From a bacterium (GTDB taxonomy: Bacteria > Patescibacteriota > Minisyncoccia > UBA6257 > 1-14-0-10-44-23), in NCBI GenBank assembly GCA_030699515.1, contig JAUYME010000066.1:1-33120 (forward strand): 33,120 bases of DNA, given 5' to 3'. Shown piece after piece: positions 3,763-33,039 of the stretch; the first letter of the stretch is position 1; every line of letters starts with the position of its first letter. Position numbers and translations under genes: made by a program. The notes below the pieces were generated by a model that was not told where the DNA came from, ran no database searches, and worked only from the letters and a program-made list of their open reading frames with translations.

Positions 3763-3803
3763 AAAAAAAACGGGCCGTGGCGACAGTGAAGCCGCCACAG
3801 CCC
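3763..3803 (-). terminator. Intrinsic terminator (13-bp stem plus U8)
   Basis: Minus strand GGGCUGUGGCGGC-UUCAC-UGUCGCCACGGCCC followed by UUUUUUUU. The two wobble pairs would be C-A mismatches on the plus strand. Confidence 0.75.
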
Positions 3804-3995
3804 TGATGAGTGCGCCCGGTTGGGGCGATCGGAGTCCCTACCCTCTTCTATGCTGCCTTCGTTTGGGAGCGGGGCAGTCGTTGTCCCTACTGAAGCTGCC
3901 ACAGAGGGCCATTGCGAATAGAAACCCAATTGCGGCAGTCCCCAGCGAAACCAGAAAGACTGTAAGCACGGGAACTCCAGGGGACCGGGACTTAT
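3763..3995 (-). ncRNA. Unclassified GC-rich structured RNA (independent sRNA or cis-leader), ending in an intrinsic terminator
   Basis: GC-rich block in an AT-rich spacer. 5'/3' end complementarity (GGAGUUCCC/GGGACUCC, CCCGG/CCGGG). Extended -10 (TGGTATAAAT) near 4000. The terminator has G-U wobbles valid only on the minus strand. Confidence 0.5.
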
Positions 3996-8702: not shown

Positions 8703-8875
8703 CCACAATCGCACTATGCCGCGGCACAGTGCGATTGTGGGGAGTGGTGTGGTGGGTGGTTAACAAGGTGGTTAACCGCTATAAAGGCTAGAAAGCCTCA
8801 TGAATACTGGGCTTTTGGGCTGTTTAAAAAAGAATTATATAATTTATTATGTAATAAATTATATAATTCTTTTTT
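8703..8875. repeat. Composite module A: hairpin 8703-8740, GGTGGTTAAC x2 (8755-8764, 8767-8776), aagcctcatgaata, A/T-only palindrome 8826-8875
   Basis: Homologous in order and sequence to 32120-32358. The hairpin stems differ by compensatory changes. Confidence 0.8.
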
Positions 8876-8951
8876 TTGGGAAGTCTTATTAAAAAGCGGA
8901 ACCGGCGGCCCTGGAGAGGGTCGCCGGCGCGCGGATGGAGGGTGGGGCTAG

Positions 8952-16620: not shown

Positions 16621-16915
16621 TTTTTTTGTGCTTTGCCTTGACCTGCGAGACTTTCGTTTGGATGAAGTATCGCCAAGTCAAGGTAGCTTTATTAAAGTTG
16701 TAATAAATGCGACTTTTCTACAGTAGCTGACGATTGAAACTAGCAACTCTTTCCTTGCTATGTTATTCGCTAAAAATCTTTAAGGTGATAAAATGGAATT
16801 GTAGTTTCAAGAAAAGTTGAATATCCCGATATGATAGCTTCTAGTGCCTTTGGCACTAAGCATCAAACGGGATGCTCAATTTTGTAGATAAATCTAAGAT
16901 TTAAACAAAATTGGC

Positions 16916-18763
16916 ATGTGTGGAATTGTTGGATACATAGGAAAGAAAAGGGCAATGCCGGTTTTGCTGGATGGTTTAAAGCGCTTGGAATATCGCGGCT
17001 ACGATAGTGCCGGGGTGGCGATTTTGGAAAACACTGAAGTTAAGGCATTTAAAAAAGTTGGGCGGGTGGAAAATTTGCTTAAAGCGATTGAGACAGCGGG
17101 GGAGTTGGACAGCATGGCCCATATTGGTGTAGCGCATACCAGATGGGCAACTCATGGAAAGCCCAGCGAGGAAAATGCTCATCCGCACAGTGATGAATTT
17201 GGTAAGTTTTGGTTGGTGCACAATGGAATTATTGAAAATTATGAGGAACTAAAGAAAGAGCTTTCAGAGAGCGGGGTAAAATTTAGTTCGGAAACGGACA
17301 CCGAGGTTGTAGTGCAGCTGATTGCTAAAGAAATGGAAGCTGGACTAAGTTTTGAAGAGGCTTTTCGAGTGGCGCTTAAAAAACTTCGAGGAGCTTATGG
17401 AATTGTAGTAATGAGTGCAGACGAGCCGGAATATTTAATGGCTGCAAGAAATTCAAGTCCGCTTTTAATTGGAGTAGGAGATGGGGAAATGATAGTAGCG
17501 TCTGATGCAAGTGCCGTTGTGGGTACAACTAAAAAAATTGTTTATTTGGAAGATGGGGAGTTGGCAAAAGTTTCAGCAGATGGGCTAAAGATTGAGCTTA
17601 TTGCCGAGGCTGGTAAAGAGTTGAAGCGCGAGGCAGAAACTGTAGATATGGATGCAAGCGAAATAGAAAAGGACGGACACGATTTCTTTATGCATAAAGA
17701 AATTTTTGAAATTCCCAGCGCTGTTTTAAATGCGGGAAGGGGAAGGTTTATTGCCAGTGAGGGTTTGGTGAAGTTTGGAGGTATTGAAGAAATTAAAAGC
17801 AAGTTAAGGGATATTGATAGAATTATTATTTCCGCTTGCGGCACCGCAGCCTATGCTGGCTTACTGGGCGAATATTTTATTGAAGAGCTGGCCGGAATTC
17901 CGGTGGAAGTGGAAATTGGCTCTGAATTCAGATACAGAAGCCCTGTATTTACGGAGCGCACTGCTTTAATTGTTGTTTCTCAATCTGGGGAAACTGCAGA
18001 TACATTGGCGGCGGTGCGAGAAGCAAAGGAGAAGGGGATTTTAGTTTTAGGTATTGTTAATGTAGTTGGCTCTACAATTGCGCGCGAAGTGGACTGTGGA
18101 ATTTATACCCATGCCGGTCCGGAAATTGGAGTGGCCTCTACAAAAGCTTTTATTTCTCAGCTTACGGTACTTTTACTTTTGGCTATTTATTTGGGCAGAC
18201 AGCGAAATTTATCTGTAAATGAAACAAAGGAAATTTTGGCAGATTTAGAGAAGCTTCCTGAGCTTTTAGATTCTATCTTGCATCGAGAAAAATTGGCAAA
18301 GAAGCTAGCAAAGAAATATAAAGATTTTACCAGCATGGCTTTCTTGGGTAGAAAATATAGTTTCCCTGTGGCGCTGGAGGGAGCTTTGAAATTAAAAGAA
18401 ATTTCTTATATCCATGGAGAAGGTTATCCGGCAGGAGAATTTAAGCATGGGCCAATTGCGCTCCTTGATGAAAAATTTCCGGTTTTCTTTATATTGCCTA
18501 GCGATGATGTTTACGAAAAAAGTAAATCTAATTTGGAAGAGATAAAAGCAAGGCAAGCGCCTGTAATTGCCATTGTGACTGAAGGAAATAAAGAATTAAT
18601 GAGAATGGCTGATGATGTTTTGGAAATCCCCAAAATAGCAAATATTTTAAGCCCGTTTCTTTCTACGCTTTGGACTTATCTTTTTGCTTACCATGTTGCG
18701 GATATGAAAAATTTGGACGTGGATAAGCCTAGAAACTTAGCTAAGTCTGTGACCGTCGAGTAA
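16916..18763 (+). CDS. glmS: Glutamine--fructose-6-phosphate aminotransferase
   Basis: N-terminal MCGIVGY, two SIS domains, C-terminal KPRNLAKSVTVE. Confidence 0.95.
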   Translation: MCGIVGYIGKKRAMPVLLDGLKRLEYRGYDSAGVAILENTEVKAFKKVGRVENLLKAIETAGELDSMAHIGVAHTRWATHGKPSEENAHPHSDEFGKFWLVHNGIIENYEELKKELSESGVKFSSETDTEVVVQLIAKEMEAGLSFEEAFRVALKKLRGAYGIVVMSADEPEYLMAARNSSPLLIGVGDGEMIVASDASAVVGTTKKIVYLEDGELAKVSADGLKIELIAEAGKELKREAETVDMDASEIEKDGHDFFMHKEIFEIPSAVLNAGRGRFIASEGLVKFGGIEEIKSKLRDIDRIIISACGTAAYAGLLGEYFIEELAGIPVEVEIGSEFRYRSPVFTERTALIVVSQSGETADTLAAVREAKEKGILVLGIVNVVGSTIAREVDCGIYTHAGPEIGVASTKAFISQLTVLLLLAIYLGRQRNLSVNETKEILADLEKLPELLDSILHREKLAKKLAKKYKDFTSMAFLGRKYSFPVALEGALKLKEISYIHGEGYPAGEFKHGPIALLDEKFPVFFILPSDDVYEKSKSNLEEIKARQAPVIAIVTEGNKELMRMADDVLEIPKIANILSPFLSTLWTYLFAYHVADMKNLDVDKPRNLAKSVTVE

Positions 18764-18770
18764 GGATGTG

Positions 18771-18837
18771 GACCCCCGCGTGCTTCGCGCGCTGCACCAG
18801 AGCCGACGAGGCAAGCTCGGGCTCGGTGCGGGGCGGG
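18771..18837. repeat. GC-rich two-hairpin element, copy 1
   Basis: gaCCCCCGC-[GCGUG cuucg CGCGC]-u-[GCACC a GAGCC ga CGAG gcaag CUCG GGCUC GGUGC]-GGGGcggg. Homologous to 19337-19406 and 32844-32912. Confidence 0.85.
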
Positions 18838-18838
18838 T

Positions 18839-18877
18839 AAACCAAGAAATTTGGCAAAAAGCGTTACTGTGGAATAA
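18839..18877 (+). pseudogene. Displaced second copy of the glmS 3' end (KPRNLAKSVTVE*), synonymously different from 18725-18763
   Basis: aaa cca aga aat ttg gca aaa agc gtt act gtg gaa taa translates identically to the last 12 codons plus stop of glmS. It lies 114 nt downstream in the same frame. Confidence 0.8.
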
Positions 18878-18883
18878 AGAAAT

Positions 18884-18916
18884 AAAAAACACCTCGCAAG
18901 CGCGGGGTGTTTTTTA
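18884..18916. terminator. Bidirectional intrinsic terminator
   Basis: aaaaaacacctcgc-aa-gcgcggggtgtttttt, between convergent glmS and the small membrane gene. Confidence 0.7.
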
Positions 18917-18931
18917 TTTTATACTGCTGAA

Positions 18932-19168
18932 CTATTCAGTGCCAGAGTCTTCGCCGTCAGGAAGGCTAATGTCTACATCAACTCCTGTGCCGTCGTTGTC
19001 TGTATCTTCGCTACTTCCTCCTGCAAAGTAGAAGATAAGGCCGGCAACAACTACAATTAGGATAATGATAGTAATCCACATTCCGCCGTTACCGCCTTTG
19101 CGCTCTGGCTGGCTAGCCATTGGCTGCTGCCCTTGAGGTGCTTGGCCTTGTTGTTCTTGGTTTTCCAT
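18932..19168 (-). CDS. Small single-pass membrane protein (78 aa), paralog of 16375..16620
   Basis: Q/G-rich N-terminus, TM MWITIIILIVVVAGLIFYFA, C-terminal GVDVDISLPDGEDSG. Confidence 0.55.
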   Translation of the reverse strand: MENQEQQGQAPQGQQPMASQPERKGGNGGMWITIIILIVVVAGLIFYFAGGSSEDTDNDGTGVDVDISLPDGEDSGTE

Positions 19169-19336
19169 AGTGTGTATGTTGTTAATTTCTAATGAATACT
19201 AGTAAAAGCATAACATTATTATAGAATAATGCTCGTTTTGCAGTGGAAAAATAGAGAGTAATCGCGAACATCGCGAATTGCGCAAAATATCGCGAATAAA
19301 ACTAAGGCGGGGAAAATTGGGTTATTCCAAGGTTGA

Positions 19337-19461
19337 GACCCCCGCATGGCAAGCCGTGCTGCACCAGAACCAACGAAGTAAATTCGGGCTCGGTGCGGGG
19401 CAGGACTTGGTAGCTTGCTGGTGTGTACTTAGTGATGGGCTGGATAGTTTTTCAATCGGTC
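19337..19461. repeat. GC-rich two-hairpin element, copy 2 (core 19337-19406) plus a ~55-nt tail, bounded by 19-nt direct repeats
   Basis: Core homologous to copies 1 and 3. Direct repeats ttattccaaggttgagacc at 19322-19340 and 19462-19480. Confidence 0.85.
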
Positions 19462-19953
19462 TTATTCCAAGGTTGAGACCGTGGACTGCAAAGATCTAGT
19501 TTCTTTGATTTGAGGATTGTCCGGGTTGGAAGTCAATACAATAGAAATTTGCACAGCAGTGGTAGAGGTGCCGCTAAATTCCTGGAAAGTTAGGCTGTCT
19601 AGCGTAACATCGGCGCTTGTTAGCGCTTCTTGCGAATTTGACCCCAGCTTTCTGTAGATTGTTCCTGCTGAACTGTTGATTATAATCGGGTCGGTGCTTG
19701 ACACTCCGGTAGTAATTGTAAGGGTTGAACTGCTGACAGATATTGATTGACCCTGGCGGACGTCGGTTTTGATAACATTCATTACAAAGCTTAGCTCACT
19801 GCTTAGTTTATAGCCTGAGCTTTGATGCTGCTGAACTCTAAGAATTGTAAATAGTATTCCTGAAAGAAGGCTAAGAAGGATAACGGTAAGGCCAAGGTAG
19901 ATGACCAGCTCAATGAAAGAAAGCCCCCGCGTGCTTCGCGCGCTTTTAAACAC
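19462..19953 (-). CDS. Prepilin-type (type IV pilin-like) pseudopilin; start uncertain (GTG 19953 or ATG 20028)
   Basis: G|LSFIELVIYLGLTVILLSLL is a class III signal/methylation motif. The stretch upstream of the Gly is repeat-derived sequence. Confidence 0.7.
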   Translation of the reverse strand: MFKSARSTRGLSFIELVIYLGLTVILLSLLSGILFTILRVQQHQSSGYKLSSELSFVMNVIKTDVRQGQSISVSSSTLTITTGVSSTDPIIINSSAGTIYRKLGSNSQEALTSADVTLDSLTFQEFSGTSTTAVQISIVLTSNPDNPQIKETRSLQSTVSTLE

Positions 19954-20044
19954 TAATGCACGAATGGGCGCGAATCCTCTAATAAGAAATGAAGGTCCTT
20001 TCGTTTTATTCGGTGATTGATGAATCATTGGTGTATTAGTGTTT
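19948..20044. repeat. MITE-like inverted-repeat element E1 (termini AAACACTAATGCAC ... GTGTATTAGTGTTT)
   Basis: Homologous, in reverse orientation, to 29112-29227. Shares a 19-nt identical end, cattggtgtattagtgttt. Confidence 0.75.
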
Positions 20045-20131
20045 ATCTATGAATTTTAGCATGTAGTATTGATTATTTTTTTCAAAGCTTGTATTATCCA
20101 GAAGTCTGGGGTAGCCCAGACTTATTTAATT

Positions 20132-20836
20132 ATGACGGATAGTAATGAAACCGGAACACAGGTAAAAGACTCAATGCTTGAAGAGATGGCGCAGGCCGGT
20201 CTTTTGTTTGGGCGGAAAAAATCAAAGACTAATCCAAAAATGAAGGATTATGTTTTTGCGAACCGAAACGGCTTTGAGATGTTTGATTTGGAAAAAACCG
20301 CCGCAAAGCTTGAGGAAGCTAAGGCATTTTTGGCTTCCGTGGCAAAGACCGGGAAAACTATTTTGTTTGTTGGTACTACTCCTGCGGGCCAAGAAGTTAT
20401 GAAGGAAGTTGCCGAAGGCTTTAAGGCTCCTTATGTAACCCATAGGTGGCTTGGCGGTACTTTAAGTAATTTTGAAACAATTTCTTCACGGCTTAGGTAT
20501 TTTATTAAACTTAAGGCCGACAAAGAATCCGGAAAACTTGAAAAATATACCAAGAAGGAGCGGACAAAATTTGATAAAGAGCTGGAAAGATTAGAGAGGC
20601 TTTTCGGCGGTCTTGAAGAATTAACTGCTATGCCTGCCGCACTCATTGTGGCAAATACAGATGCGCATTCAATTGCAGTAAGAGAGGCAAATATTGCAGG
20701 AGTGCCGGTAATTGGAATTACAAATTCCAGCACCGATCCTGAGGGCGTAGATTATCTGATTCCGGCAAATGACAACAGTATTTCTAGCGTGCGTTGGATT
20801 GTTGAGCAATTAGCGCAGGCGTTAAAGACGAAGTAA
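20132..20836 (+). CDS. rpsB: 30S ribosomal protein S2
   Basis: MLEEMAQAGLLFGRKKSKTNPKM... and HRWLGGTLSNF. ATG 20132 preferred over the ORF-track start. Confidence 0.9.
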   Translation: MTDSNETGTQVKDSMLEEMAQAGLLFGRKKSKTNPKMKDYVFANRNGFEMFDLEKTAAKLEEAKAFLASVAKTGKTILFVGTTPAGQEVMKEVAEGFKAPYVTHRWLGGTLSNFETISSRLRYFIKLKADKESGKLEKYTKKERTKFDKELERLERLFGGLEELTAMPAALIVANTDAHSIAVREANIAGVPVIGITNSSTDPEGVDYLIPANDNSISSVRWIVEQLAQALKTK

Positions 20837-21003
20837 GCGAAGTAGACGAAGTAGGCGAAGTAAGCGAATAAACGAAGTAGCAAATAAACGAAGTAGGCGA
20901 AGTAGGCGAAATTAGAATTAACTTTGAACTATTTGGAATATGGCGACCCTTCGACAAGCTCAGGGTGCTCATATTTCTAGATAAATCAAAGATTTATAGA
21001 AAT

Positions 21004-24756: not shown

Positions 24757-24895
24757 GCCGTTTTGGGTTAAAATAGGGCATTCCTAAGAGTAATCGCTAA
24801 AATCGCGAAAGTACACAAAAAATCGCGAAAAAGATAAAGACGCATAAGACTAAGGAGTAATCGCGAAAAACGCGAATTGATTCAAAATATCGCGA

Positions 24896-25285
24896 ATGGA
24901 AGGCAAAGACCAGAAAATAGAGAGGGGTGAGCTGCAGGCTCTAGTAAAGAAGAGAGATAGCCATGTTAGCCGTCTTTTCTACATGATGCTAGAGTTCTTT
25001 TTAATTTTTGGATTGCCGGCTCTTGCGGCATTTTTTGGTGGCAGGGCGCTAGACTCTGCGCTTGGAACAGGAAAGTTATGGCTTATTATTTTTCTGATAG
25101 CTGCATTTGTTCTGTCTTGGGTAATAGTGGTGCTTAGGGTAAGGAAAATTACAAAGGAGCTGAAAGTGCTGGATGCTAGAATTAAAGAAATTAGAGAATC
25201 CCGTAAAACCGCAACAGCAATGAATGCTGGCGGCCACGGGACTAACTTAAATCAAGATTTAAAAGGAGAAGAAAAGAATGTTTGA
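24896..25285 (+). CDS. AtpZ/AtpI-like small membrane protein preceding the atp genes
   Basis: Two TM helices. Position directly before atpB, with an 8-nt overlap. Confidence 0.5.
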   Translation: MEGKDQKIERGELQALVKKRDSHVSRLFYMMLEFFLIFGLPALAAFFGGRALDSALGTGKLWLIIFLIAAFVLSWVIVVLRVRKITKELKVLDARIKEIRESRKTATAMNAGGHGTNLNQDLKGEEKNV

Positions 25286-26172: not shown

Positions 26173-26403
26173 ATGGAAACAGCAGGAATGTCTGTAGAAG
26201 CAGCAAGTATGATTGCAAAGGGGCTAATTGCTCTTGCAATGGTGGGAACCGCTGCCGGTGAAGGTTACGTTATCGGTAAGGCTCTTGAAGCCATTGGACG
26301 AAACCCAGAGGCTGGAAGCTCTATCTTTGGAAAAATGATTATCGGTGTGGCCATGGCTGAGTCTACAGCTATTTACGCATTGGTGTTGTTTTTCGTCATC
26401 TAG
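26173..26403 (+). CDS. atpE: F0 ATP synthase subunit c
   Basis: Hairpin proteolipid with GRNPE loop and AMAESTAIYALV carboxylate helix. Confidence 0.9.
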   Translation: METAGMSVEAASMIAKGLIALAMVGTAAGEGYVIGKALEAIGRNPEAGSSIFGKMIIGVAMAESTAIYALVLFFVI

Positions 26404-26458
26404 GAGTAATCGCTAATATCGCGAACGGGGGAGGTAATATCGCGAATAAAACAAAAAC

Positions 26459-26941
26459 GTGCAAGAAGTACTAGGAAAAATTGGATTTGATTGGCATTTA
26501 GCCATTGTAAACTTGGTGAATGTATTCATTATTTTTCTGGTACTAAAAAAGTGGGCTTTTGGGCCAATTCAGAACATTATTGATGAGCGAAAGAAGGAGG
26601 TAGATGCAAGTTTGCAGTCTGCGCAAGATGCGCAAAAGCAAAGCGAGATGGCAGAGCAAGAGCGGGAAAAAACCATTGCTAAAGCTAGAAAGGAGGCACA
26701 GGGAATTTTAGAAACTGCCAACGAAGAAAGCAAGGGTATTGTTGAAGAAGGAAAGCTGAAGCTTTCTAAGGAAAAAGATGAGATGCTAAAGAAGGCAAGC
26801 CTTGAGATAGAAGCAAAGAAAAAGGAAAGTGAAGACAAGCTAAAAAGTCAGGCATCCGTCCTTATTACTTCTGGAATTAAGAAAATTCTTAAGGAAGAGG
26901 TGGATAGGGAGATGAACAGTCGCATTATCAACAAAAGTTGA
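26459..26941 (+). CDS. atpF: F0 ATP synthase subunit b (GTG start)
   Basis: N-terminal TM, then a long charged coiled coil. Position in the operon. Confidence 0.8.
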   Translation: MQEVLGKIGFDWHLAIVNLVNVFIIFLVLKKWAFGPIQNIIDERKKEVDASLQSAQDAQKQSEMAEQEREKTIAKARKEAQGILETANEESKGIVEEGKLKLSKEKDEMLKKASLEIEAKKKESEDKLKSQASVLITSGIKKILKEEVDREMNSRIINKS

Positions 26942-27465: not shown

Positions 27466-27600
27466 AAGGATGTAGGATGTAGGAGTTAGAATTTAGGGTT
27501 GGAGGCGAAGCAAAGCTTCGCAGATCTATAACCTACAACCTATAACCTACTTGTGCTGAGCACAGTCGAAGCATAACCTATCCCTATAACCTATAACCTA
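27466..27600. repeat. Word-stutter imperfect hairpin (AGGATGT/AGGAGTT arms versus ATAACCT/ACAACCT arms around GCGAAGC-AAA-GCUUCGC)
   Basis: The left part, 27466-27523, is homologous to 31611-31667. The arms are mutually complementary if G-U pairs are allowed. Confidence 0.7.
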
Positions 27601-31610: not shown

Positions 31611-31667
31611 AAGGATGTAGGATGTAGGAGTTAGGATGTAGGGCTGGAAGCGAACTAAAGTTCGCAT
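31611..31667. repeat. Second copy of the AGGATGT-word element with covarying central hairpin (GCGAAC-UAAA-GUUCGC)
   Basis: aaggatgtaggatgtaggagttag... is shared with 27466-27523. Confidence 0.7.
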
Positions 31668-31760: not shown

Positions 31761-32039
31761 ATGATACAACTAAGAATCGTAACGATAGAGGGGGTGAAAT
31801 TTTCCGGGAAGGTGGGGCAGGTAACACTTCCTACCGGTGCCGGTGAAATTACGGTTTTGCCAAACCATATTCCTTTAATTTCTCAATTAAATGCTGGAAC
31901 GTTGCGAACGAAAGGAGGTGAAGAAGGGGAGCAGGCTTTTATTATTGGCAAAGGAGTGCTTGAAGTAAGGAAGGGAAGCAATGTAGTGGTGCTTACGGAT
32001 GAATGCAAAAGCAGTAGCCCTTCGACAAGCTCAGGGTAA
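31761..32039 (+). CDS. atpC: F1 ATP synthase subunit epsilon, beta-sandwich domain only
   Basis: The N-terminal domain pattern (LPNHIPLIS, VLEV) is present. The protein stops after 92 aa. The last 7 codons lie in a 20-nt motif that also occurs at 20947-20966. Confidence 0.75.
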   Translation: MIQLRIVTIEGVKFSGKVGQVTLPTGAGEITVLPNHIPLISQLNAGTLRTKGGEEGEQAFIIGKGVLEVRKGSNVVVLTDECKSSSPSTSSG

Positions 32040-32119
32040 ACAATTAGCATGTAGTAAGTAGTAAGCAGAAGGCGAAGACCAAGGCAAAGACAAATGCTAA
32101 GAAAAGAGGGGGGCGAGCC

Positions 32120-32358
32120 CCCACAATGCTGTTATGCCCAGGCATAACAGCATTGTGGGAAGTGGTTAGCCCGTCCAGCGCACTTCCTTCGGCCCCGCTC
32201 AAGATAAACAAGGCAGGCAGGGTAAACGGGGTAGGCTAGGTGGTTAACTGAGTGGTTGACTGCTTGGTAGAGTGCTTAAGCCTCATGGATAGAGGGGTTC
32301 TAGTCGATTTGGAAAAGAATTATATAATTTATTATATAATAAATTATATAATTCTTTT
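32120..32358. repeat. Composite module B: hairpin 32120-32159, GGTGGTTAAC/AGTGGTTGAC (32239-32248, 32251-32260), aagcctcatggata, A/T-only palindrome 32313-32358
   Basis: Same order as module A (8703-8875), with an extra ~65-nt GC-rich insert after the hairpin. Confidence 0.8.
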
Positions 32359-32362
32359 TTTG

Positions 32363-32476: not shown

Positions 32477-32677
32477 ATGCAGGAGCAGAAAAGCGCTGTG
32501 GACCCCATGCGCCTCAAGGGGCAGTGGGTGAGCTGTAGGGACCAATGTCGCCCACTCTTCGTTCGCGAAGTGGGTGGCGGTTCCAACCCGCTCGGGCTGG
32601 CTGAGGATGAGCTGGGCAAGGTCATCCTCTGGTCGCCACTGAAGAATGTGGACATCCCCACCGATCTGGGCGTCTGA
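32477..32677 (+). CDS. GC-rich mini-ORF (66 aa), unknown function
   Basis: SD GGAAGGAG lies 5 nt before the ATG. GC-rich third positions. Weak local similarity (C....REVGG....P....EL) to the 8952..9188 product. Confidence 0.5.
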   Translation: MQEQKSAVDPMRLKGQWVSCRDQCRPLFVREVGGGSNPLGLAEDELGKVILWSPLKNVDIPTDLGV

Positions 32678-32679
32678 CG

Positions 32680-32843
32680 CTCACACGGAAGCCACAACTT
32701 CCGGCGCTAGGCGCCGGTACGCAACTTCCCGGGGGTCGCCGTATCTGCGGCGACCCCCAGACCCCATAGCCCTTGTAGCTCCCGCCCGTTGCAAAGTAAT
32801 GGGCGAGGCTCGCCCAGCAGCAAAGCTGCTTCGGGCGGCAATG
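32680..32843. other. Chain of GC-rich hairpins, including a second Y-shaped unit (CCGCCC [GGGCGA ggc UCGCCC][AGCAGC aaa GCUGCU] GGGCGG)
   Basis: ggaagcc-acaa-cttcc, ggcgc-tag-gcgcc and gggggtcgccg-tatct-gcggcgaccccc are read directly. All ORFs here look like off-frame noise. Confidence 0.5.
32769..32781 (+). other. Duplicated fragment of the tRNA-Arg 5' end (gcccttgtagctc versus gcctttgtagctc at 32965-32977)
   Basis: 12 of 13 nt identical, same orientation, 196 nt upstream of the intact tRNA. Confidence 0.6.
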
Positions 32844-32912
32844 GACCCCCGCGCGCTTCGCGTGCTGCACCAGAACCAACGAGGCAAGCTCGGGTTCGGT
32901 GCGGGGCAGGAC
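32844..32912. repeat. GC-rich two-hairpin element, copy 3
   Basis: gacccccgcgcgcttcgcgtgctgcaccagaaccaacgaggcaagctcgggttcggtgcggggcaggac. Confidence 0.85.
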
Positions 32913-32964
32913 TCAATAGCCATTAGCCCTGATGTTGTTTGTATGCTTTGATGCGCGTGAATAT

Positions 32965-33039
32965 GCCTTTGTAGCTCAATGGATAGAGCAGTCCCGTCCT
33001 AAGGGAAAGATGTGGGTTCGATTCCTACCAAGGGCACCA
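32965..33039 (+). tRNA. tRNA-Arg(CCU), CCA encoded
   Basis: GCCTTTG TA GCTC AATGGATA GAGC A GTCCC GTCCTAA GGGAA AGAT GTGGG TTCGATT CCTAC CAAGGGC A CCA. Confidence 0.85.

Follow-up and report, generated by a model that had tools for sequence, protein, structure and literature searches.

The window, by which we mean the whole 33,120-nt stretch of DNA that was analysed, is a housekeeping region in a CPR genome of the Parcubacteria type. Present in it are the genes for ComEC, an aminoacyl-tRNA synthetase, NDK, LepA, MurB, SecA, GlmS and a type-IV-pilin-like protein, as well as those for RpsB, Tsf, four tRNAs and the ATP synthase operon, and the best named relatives of its GlmS (approximately 62% identity) belong to Harrisonbacteria and Liptonbacteria. 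CPR (Patescibacteria) genomes are small and are usually described as poor in repeats and mobile DNA. The original prediction placed three full copies of a GC-rich, two-hairpin repeat in this window, and we recovered all three on the + strand at the same positions. Copy 1 (18771-18837; 95.0 bits) starts 8 nt past the glmS stop codon. Copy 2 (19337-19406; 87.6 bits), which has a tetraloop hairpin 1 and one A.C mismatch, is the most diverged, and copy 3 (32844-32912; 95.6 bits), which is followed 52 nt downstream by tRNA-Arg(CCT), forms the right end of a stretch rich in GC and in hairpins.

The identity of these copies to copy 1 over 69 nt, as given by a repeat finder, was 71% for copy 2 and 91% for copy 3. 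Two conserved sub-patterns each occurred exactly three times in the window, as compared with the 0.01-0.02 occurrences expected from shuffles. We also found a 21-nt fragment, identical to the first 21 nt of copy 1 (CCCCCGCGTGCTTCGCGCGCT), at 19924-19944 of the + strand (18 bits), which was absent from the earlier list of copies. This fragment lies within the minus-strand pilin ORF, where the minus strand encodes SARSTRG, the end of the pilin leader peptide.

Four full copies of the element are known, three in the 33-kb window and one in the metagenome contig L006 described below. They measure 66-70 nt and are very GC-rich, whereas the host is AT-rich. The earlier description of the copies as GC-rich islands in AT-rich spacers does not fit copy 3, which ends a 480-nt GC-rich stretch. 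The G-rich strand carries all three window copies, and GC skew is positive throughout the window. The element is immediately preceded by (T)GGAC/GAGAC and followed by CAGGMCT, except that copy 1 has CGGGT in place of the usual CAGGACT. GGAC is present on both sides of copy 3, and GAC on both sides of copy 2, while copy 1 and the L006 copy are without a clear duplication.

Fold and base pairing of the repeat copies

The Y-shaped architecture that had been proposed was reproduced by both RNA and DNA folding of each copy. A closing stem of 4 bp (CCCC/GGGG) holds hairpin 1, which has 5-6 bp, and a long hairpin 2, with a single unpaired U between them. Hairpin 2 is made up of GCACC/GGUGC, a bulged A, GARCC/GGYUC, two unpaired bases, CGAR/YUCG and a 5-nt loop. 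The z-scores of these folds relative to shuffles were modest (-1.5 to -2.1), owing to the high GC content. Folding was better for the + strand in all three window copies, in which G-U pairs occur where the other strand would have A.C.

Every pair exchange listed in the original prediction was present. From copy 1 to copy 3, the third pair of hairpin 1 reads G-C, A-U and G-U, and the fourth U-G, U-G and C-G. In the lower hairpin-2 stem, a G-C pair of copy 1 is replaced by A-U in copy 3, and in the upper stem one pair is G-C in copies 1 and 3 and A-U in copy 2. The A.C mismatch of copy 2, which lies in its lower hairpin-2 stem (GAACC/GGCUC), was missing from that list. Over the three copies, 68 of 69 cells were paired and three pairs were changed on both sides, and variable positions were found at 7 of 46 paired sites as compared with 9 of 21 unpaired sites (Fisher p=0.028). 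These three compensatory pairs, together with the enrichment of variation at unpaired positions, support the view that pairing has been preferentially preserved. With three sequences the covariation was not significant, as 91 of 500 column shuffles did as well, and the compensatory changes would equally fit a functional RNA.

Duplicated gene ends and extra DNA between glmS and the pilin gene

Two syntenic relatives, the Harrisonbacteria MAG L021 and L023, have glmS and the pilin orthologue in convergent orientation, at distances of 0 and 40 nt, respectively, and neither the element, nor the spare gene tails, nor the small ORF described below was found in their glmS-pilin spacers. The corresponding distance in the window is about 700 nt, and copies 1 and 2 bracket approximately 560 nt that is missing from both relatives. 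By this comparison, about 636 nt appears to have been inserted into the ancestral glmS-pilin spacer of the window. The insert has copies 1 and 2 as direct repeats at its two ends and reads, in order, copy 1, a spare glmS tail, a terminator, a 78-aa ORF, a TCGCGA-repeat region, a spare pilin end and copy 2. The cargo between the copies (18878-19321) is lineage-specific, with no counterpart in L021 or L023; it comprises a bidirectional terminator, the membrane-protein ORF of 78 aa (18932-19168, minus strand) and the upstream region with its TCGCGA repeats.

The duplicated gene termini that abut the copies had been omitted from the original prediction. The functional glmS tail (18725-18763, + strand), here termed v1, encodes KPRNLAKSVTVE plus the stop and matches relative L023 at 31 of 39 nt, like the rest of the gene. 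The spare tail, v2 (18839-18877, + strand; score 58), encodes KPRNLAKSVTVE plus the stop once again, lies in the glmS reading frame and adjoins copy 1 at its 3' end, directly following the CGGGT sequence noted above. The two tails specify the same 12 residues and stop with 13 nucleotide differences, all of them synonymous and including a serine codon that is AGC as opposed to the TCN of all relatives. Had at least five of those changes occurred on an unconstrained copy, the peptide and stop would have survived with p<=0.002. The restriction to synonymous differences therefore suggests that both tails derive from functional glmS genes, one of them by way of recombination from another lineage. 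Codon usage favors v2 as the native tail, whereas L023, which matches v2 at only 24 of 39 nt, favors v1; the proposal made from codon usage, that the functional tail is foreign and the downstream tail native, is contradicted by this relative.

At the other end of the insert, a 19-nt direct repeat, ttattccaaggttgagacc, is located at 19322-19340 (+ strand), abutting the 5' end of copy 2. It is a spare copy of the last codons and stop of the pilin gene, and it matches perfectly (19/19 nt) the right repeat at 19462-19480 (+ strand), which is the real end of the minus-strand pilin ORF. The 55-nt stretch between copy 2 and the pilin stop (19407-19461, + strand) contains a 13-of-14-nt match to the glmS-pilin spacer of L023 (p=0.005 without the offset taken into account), equally far from the pilin stop in both sequences, and we therefore regard the stretch as ancestral spacer and not as part of the element. 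This assignment ruled out the candidate in which copy 2 formed a 121-nt transposed unit with a 19-nt target duplication.

A third possible gene-end duplication lies near copy 3. A copy of the 5' end of tRNA-Arg at 32766-32781 (+ strand), 62 nt to the left of copy 3, matches 32961-32977 at 16 of 17 positions with one gap (p=0.015). The similarity between the tails of copies 2 and 3 was not significant (29 of 500 shuffles), and a candidate duplicate of the ComEC gene end was unconvincing. Taken together, the window copies lie precisely at junctions of duplicated or rearranged DNA. The link between the element and spare gene tails, for which there is one clear case (glmS) and two weaker ones, is its truly unusual feature.

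The same organism was otherwise found only as short Logan contigs (SRR13727534) that are 100% identical to the window. Contig L016 corresponds to window positions 16858-19340 and ends at the last base of the left 19-nt repeat, and contig L017 corresponds to 19462-20975 and ends at the first base of the right one. Logan contigs are, we presume, built with k=31, in which case repeats of 19 nt are too short to interrupt them. Both contigs would be broken at these points by a co-existing allele that has the two repeats merged and lacks copy 2 and the 55 nt (140 nt in all), and the contig ends, as distinct from reads, suggest such an indel polymorphism on the assumption of k=31. As the 55 nt is ancestral spacer, this variant probably reflects a deletion between the repeats, with the state before insertion as the less likely origin.

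A related insertion in a FemX gene

A strict two-anchor scan of 185,579 species genomes returned only three chance matches, in coding DNA of Shewanella and Nocardioides. A scan of the JGI metagenomes returned 11 loci: nine GC-rich sequences that matched by chance, an unrelated hairpin (L008) and, in the low-GC contig L006, a true relative that agrees with copy 3 at 12 further positions beyond those forced by the search pattern. Thus one relative was found in total by the two collection scans, both of which used strict patterns, and a covariance model run on the loci of relatives gave no further copies. BLAST searches of phage and plasmid records and scans of viral contigs found no match to the element. 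Rfam had no match over the copies, either at gathering thresholds or at E<=10, in agreement with the earlier statement that the element could not be placed in a known RNA family, and ARAGORN called only the four true tRNAs, none of them over the copies. Within the 33-kb window we found no transposase, integrase, HUH or RAYT (Y1 HUH transposase) genes and no promoter or terminator tied to the copies, and among the loci examined we saw no insertion sequence with the same ends as the element. Identification as a tRNA pseudogene, group II intron domain V, hammerhead, retron or Tn7 end was dropped, since the defining sequence features of each are absent. Such elements are not known to have been described in CPR bacteria, and the literature searched contained no description of them.

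The L006 element is located in frame within a gene for FemX (lipid II glycyltransferase), where it occupies 66 nt, or 22 codons. The FemX protein encoded by L006 has 354 aa, while seven homologues of 70-88% identity have 332-336 aa; its 22 extra residues are exactly the element, and none of the seven homologues has them. Comparison of the filled site with DNA of two empty sites (L018 and L019) gave a clean 66-nt difference. An in-frame insert of this kind in a gene whose homologues are empty is how mobile DNA behaves. The named relatives of this FemX are from Beckwith- and Gottesmanbacteria, which indicates that the element family spans two major CPR groups.

The L006 copy lacks hairpin 1 and forms one long hairpin, and it is the opposite strand that folds better (-41 versus -29 kcal/mol). 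What it shares with the window copies is the stem base only (CCCCGC / TGCACC-A-GAAC / GTTC-GGTGC-GGGG-CAGG). In the four-way alignment the invariant blocks were CCCCGC, TGCACCAGA.C and TCGGTGCGGGGC.GG, which form the stem base with its bulged A and a short 3' tail; written in order, the stem-base pattern is CCCCGC … TGCACCAGAAC … GTTCGGTGCGGGGCAGG, and the ends CCCCGC(ACC)…(GGT)GCGGGG are invariant in 4 of 4 full copies. The element interior and hairpin 1 were not conserved across the four copies. Given the single hairpin and the preference for the other strand in L006, neither the Y shape nor the strand is a property of the family, but the hairpin base is.

Origin of the repeat family

We favor the interpretation, with a probability of roughly 0.6, that the 67-nt unit belongs to a family of mobile DNA elements of CPR (Patescibacteria) genomes that are small, non-autonomous, GC-rich and palindromic. 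Most likely this is a new family of a known kind (REP-, MITE- or RPE-like, and analogous to mitochondrial GC clusters) rather than a new functional RNA gene. The copies have diverged from one another, keep conserved inverted ends around a variable interior, preserve their stems better than their loops and have empty orthologous sites in relatives; they have landed in spacers and also, in frame, within a gene. The original prediction had taken the repeat for a selected RNA or single-stranded DNA structure. Its RNA half fared poorly in view of the L006 copy (no hairpin 1, better folding of the other strand, insertion within FemX), the placement at junctions and the lack of a promoter or terminator, whereas a single-stranded DNA structure is viable, as the form recognized during mobilization.

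Under this interpretation, the element would be defined by the base of the long hairpin (CCCCGC, TGCACC, a bulged A and GAAC on one side, GTTC-GGTGC-GGGG on the other, then CAGG(A/C)CT), and its interior would be free to change, an extra nested hairpin there producing the Y shape in this genome. A trans-acting enzyme encoded elsewhere, for which a transposase, an HUH-type nuclease or a recombinase is a candidate, would recognize the stem base, either folded in single-stranded DNA or in an extruded cruciform. Selection for continued mobilization may then have kept the pairing and given rise to the compensatory changes. Once dispersed, the copies might act as break or recombination junctions, and the route could be homology between copies, hairpin-induced breaks or site-specific recombination.

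Several known systems resemble the element in part. Rickettsia palindromic elements (RPEs) are 100-150 bp long and restricted to Rickettsia. Like them, the present element is a short palindromic repeat dispersed in a reduced genome, found in spacers and as an in-frame protein insertion, the latter exemplified by the 22 codons in the FemX gene of L006. The likeness is behavioral only: RPEs are not known to be related to it in sequence, and its copies are 66-70 nt long and found in CPR bacteria. REPs and BIMEs, which are mobilized by RAYT (an IS200/IS605-type Y1 HUH enzyme), are GC-rich imperfect hairpins that often lie just past stop codons, show a strand bias and serve as substrate in the form of a folded single strand. 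The present element shares with them the GC-rich imperfect hairpin, the conserved stem and variable loop, the extragenic location and the strand bias. However, REPs are 20-40 nt long with a GTAG or CGTC tag, while the copies here are longer and have neither GTAG nor CGTC adjoining them, and REPs are not known to occur in frame within coding regions.

Bacterial MITEs such as Correia and RUP likewise are small, without an ORF, bounded by terminal inverted repeats (here CCCCGC…GCGGGG) and present as diverged copies. The element matches them in its size, terminal inverted repeats, lack of an ORF and multiple copies, and it is present or absent at orthologous sites, filled in L006 and empty in L018 and L019, and empty also in the spacers of L021 and L023. 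It differs in that no clear target-site duplication or parent insertion sequence was identified, and in that a MITE consists of two ends around a core, whereas this element is one hairpin throughout.

The mitochondrial GC clusters, double-hairpin elements and repetitive hairpin-forming elements (yeast GC42, Allomyces DHE and sponge RHE), are GC-rich hairpins or double hairpins in AT-rich, compact genomes, as is the case here. In yeast GC42, variation is likewise enriched at unpaired positions and the stems are constrained, and GC clusters pass between species together with co-conversion tracts at their flanks, fuse into composite structures and enter coding regions (PMC4478555). Similar traits have been described for the hairpin elements of sponge mitochondria (PMC2800124). 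The endonuclease-linked gene hybrids of fungal mitochondria (PMC3787672) resemble the spare glmS tail of the window. These elements are organellar and unrelated to ours in sequence, so that the relationship is one of analogy, not of membership.

An alternative that we consider unlikely is that the element is a folded-DNA recombination site comparable to integron attC sites. Conservation in such sites is confined to the stem base and the extrahelical bases, with a variable distal part, and the present element is built likewise, its stem base and single extrahelical base being conserved while the distal part varies in sequence and in shape. A recombinase would bind the stem base and bulged A, and a circular, one-site cassette would integrate at a resident site and end up flanked by two direct copies. 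The glmS-pilin locus would fit such an event, in that two direct copies bracket a lineage-specific segment with one small ORF, its own upstream region and a terminator, and Campbell-type integration at a resident site would give this arrangement. A related and equally unlikely reading makes the element a recombination site of an undescribed CPR cassette-exchange or homing system, cut and joined at the hairpin by a trans-acting enzyme and moving with neighboring DNA that includes spare 3' ends of essential genes (glmS), so that target genes stay intact. In the attC-like reading, as in integrons, folded single-stranded hairpins would flank small cassettes. Against it, the attC core sequences RYYYAAC/GTTRRRY are absent from all copies, no integrase or other recombinase lies within the window, and the 66-nt insertion in the L006 gene stands alone and brings no cargo. 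In addition, copies 1 and 2 are just 71% identical, and the presence of spare gene ends inside the cassette requires an extra assumption.

A functional structured RNA read from the + strand, whether a small RNA or part of a 3'-UTR or leader, with the Y fold selected for stability, processing or protein binding, seems to us rather improbable. It would account for the better folding of the + strand in the three window copies, with its G-U pairs in place of A.C, for the three compensatory pairs and for the concentration of variation at unpaired positions. The settings of copy 1, between the glmS stop and its terminator, and of copy 3, just upstream of a tRNA and in the sense orientation, would also suit an RNA. 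Yet the gene contexts of the copies are unrelated, copy 2 is antisense to the neighboring gene, and the element is missing downstream of glmS in the syntenic relatives. The L006 copy, inserted in a coding region, dispenses with hairpin 1 and prefers the opposite strand; moreover, the covariation falls short of significance at n=3, Rfam gave no match, and neither a promoter nor a terminator accompanies the copies.

Very improbable, in our judgment, is a retro-mobile, SINE-like element, in which a structured RNA would be reverse-transcribed and inserted by target priming with long, variable target duplications. This was suggested by the direct repeats that lie near copy 2 (19 nt) and copy 3 (about 17 nt) and are longer than is usual for DNA transposases, and RNA-mediated spread has been proposed for the mitochondrial GC clusters (PMC4478555). 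Its chief support was removed once the 55 nt separating copy 2 from the right repeat had been recognized as native spacer, as the 19-nt repeat is then no simple target duplication; the L006 insertion is also without a long duplication, and the window contains no reverse transcriptase.

A coding module, that is, a conserved 22-residue peptide segment (…HQN…G.GAGQ…), is barely credible: one + frame is open in all copies with similar peptides, and the same frame is translated within the L006 FemX, but several frames are open in any case in DNA this rich in GC, the frame of copy 2 is shifted by a 1-nt indel in hairpin 1 so that no reading frame is shared by the copies, in line with the original view that none looks coding, the copies have no start codon or ribosome-binding site of their own (copy 1 beginning beyond a stop codon), substitutions track base pairing and not codon positions, and a peptide search with the concatenated translations of the element returned nothing at E<=10.

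A nearly identical stem base is shared by a Parcubacteria-type and a Microgenomates-type genome, in the latter in frame in a gene for a cell-wall enzyme. If the repeats are small mobile palindromic elements, as we favor, the family could be seen as the bacterial equivalent of the mobile GC clusters found in mitochondria and as a counterpart of the Rickettsia palindromic elements. Such elements break assemblies, create spurious ORFs and protein 'insertions' in metagenome gene calls and, through compensatory changes in their stems, can pass for structured RNAs. Should the association with spare gene tails prove general, it would point to a gene-end-sparing insertion mechanism, which to our knowledge has so far been known mainly from organellar homing elements.

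Other branched GC-rich hairpins adjoin copy 3, at 32782-32838 and at about 32106-32200, and these are unrelated to it in sequence. Their presence fits a genome colonized by several such families, in which the nesting of one element in another would produce Y shapes.

Possible allelic variation at copy 2 and a patch of copy 1 in the pilin leader

Two Logan contigs of sample SRR13727534 that are 100% identical to the window, L016 (16858-19340) and L017 (19462-20975), ended exactly at the two 19-nt repeats that carry the spare and the real end of the pilin gene (19322-19340 and 19462-19480), suggesting that an allele lacking both copy 2 of the hairpin element (19337-19406) and the adjacent 55 nt (19407-19461) co-exists in this sample. 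A break in another Logan contig, L004, fell within an 84-nt repeat (8793-8876 and 32278-32361, 86% identity), which terminates in a perfect AT-only palindrome resembling a terminator.

Within the pilin ORF (19462-20028, minus strand), a 21-nt patch (19924-19944) matches the 5' end of copy 1 (18771-18837) with 100% identity, which implies that copying or conversion took place recently. This patch encodes SARSTRG, with which the pilin leader ends ahead of the G|LSFIEL cleavage motif. Leader length is about 34 residues in the window and in the closest relative, P0241, compared with 2-15 in other homologues.

Second copies of the glmS end and a tRNA 5' end, and a possible duplication of the atpC end

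A second glmS C-terminal tail of 12 codons and a stop is present in frame at 18839-18877, and all of its differences from the real tail are synonymous. Codon usage and L023, a syntenic relative in which glmS and the pilin gene are convergent and the element is absent, gave opposing answers as to the native tail. A further gene-end duplication may lie at 32202-32216, where the sequence gctcaagataaacaa is a decayed copy of the atpC gene end (gctcagggtaaacaa, 32026-32042) and is located approximately 170 nt 3' of atpC, past a block of GC-rich hairpins. The sequence GGGTAAAC was found three times in the window, always at a junction of this kind. The sequence across the 5' end of tRNA-Arg(CCT) (32961-32977) has a 16/17 copy about 195 nt further upstream, at 32766-32781, with copy 3 (32844-32912) and another hairpin element in between.

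Additional GC-rich structures and stretches

Further GC-rich branched (Y-shaped) hairpins, unrelated in sequence to the family of copies 1-3, were observed immediately 5' of copy 3 (32782-32838, fold z-score -3.4) and 3' of atpC (about 32106-32200, fold z-score -6.3), the latter including a perfect 18-bp hairpin. Just upstream of the ComEC gene, three tandem 37-nt units (44-165) each contain the GC-rich hairpin CCCACCGCCGCCAAGGCTATGGCGGGCAGG. An apparently non-coding GC-rich stretch of about 220 nt (about 3770-3990), which includes CUGAUGAG and lies upstream of an aminoacyl-tRNA synthetase gene, had no Rfam match at E<=0.1, and may represent additional hairpin elements or a structured RNA that has escaped annotation. 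The GC-rich block to the left of copy 3 contains a 66-codon ORF (32477-32677) whose GC content is approximately 60% and whose ribosome-binding site looks plausible; this ORF, which had no Pfam match and no record in the protein collection searched, may be foreign DNA.

Repeated motifs near genes

TCGCGA-rich motifs (GAGTAATCGCGAAnATCGCGAA … AATATCGCGAATAAAAC) were repeated at 19252-19314, 24784-24896 and 26400-26464, upstream of the 78-aa ORF (18932-19168, minus strand) and of ATP synthase genes; they look like a common promoter or operator module. Another motif, AAGGATGTAGGATGTAGGAG, recurs immediately 3' of ATP synthase gene stop codons (27466-27515 and 31611-31660), and its short form, taaggatgtgga, follows the glmS stop at 18763-18772, just 5' of copy 1.
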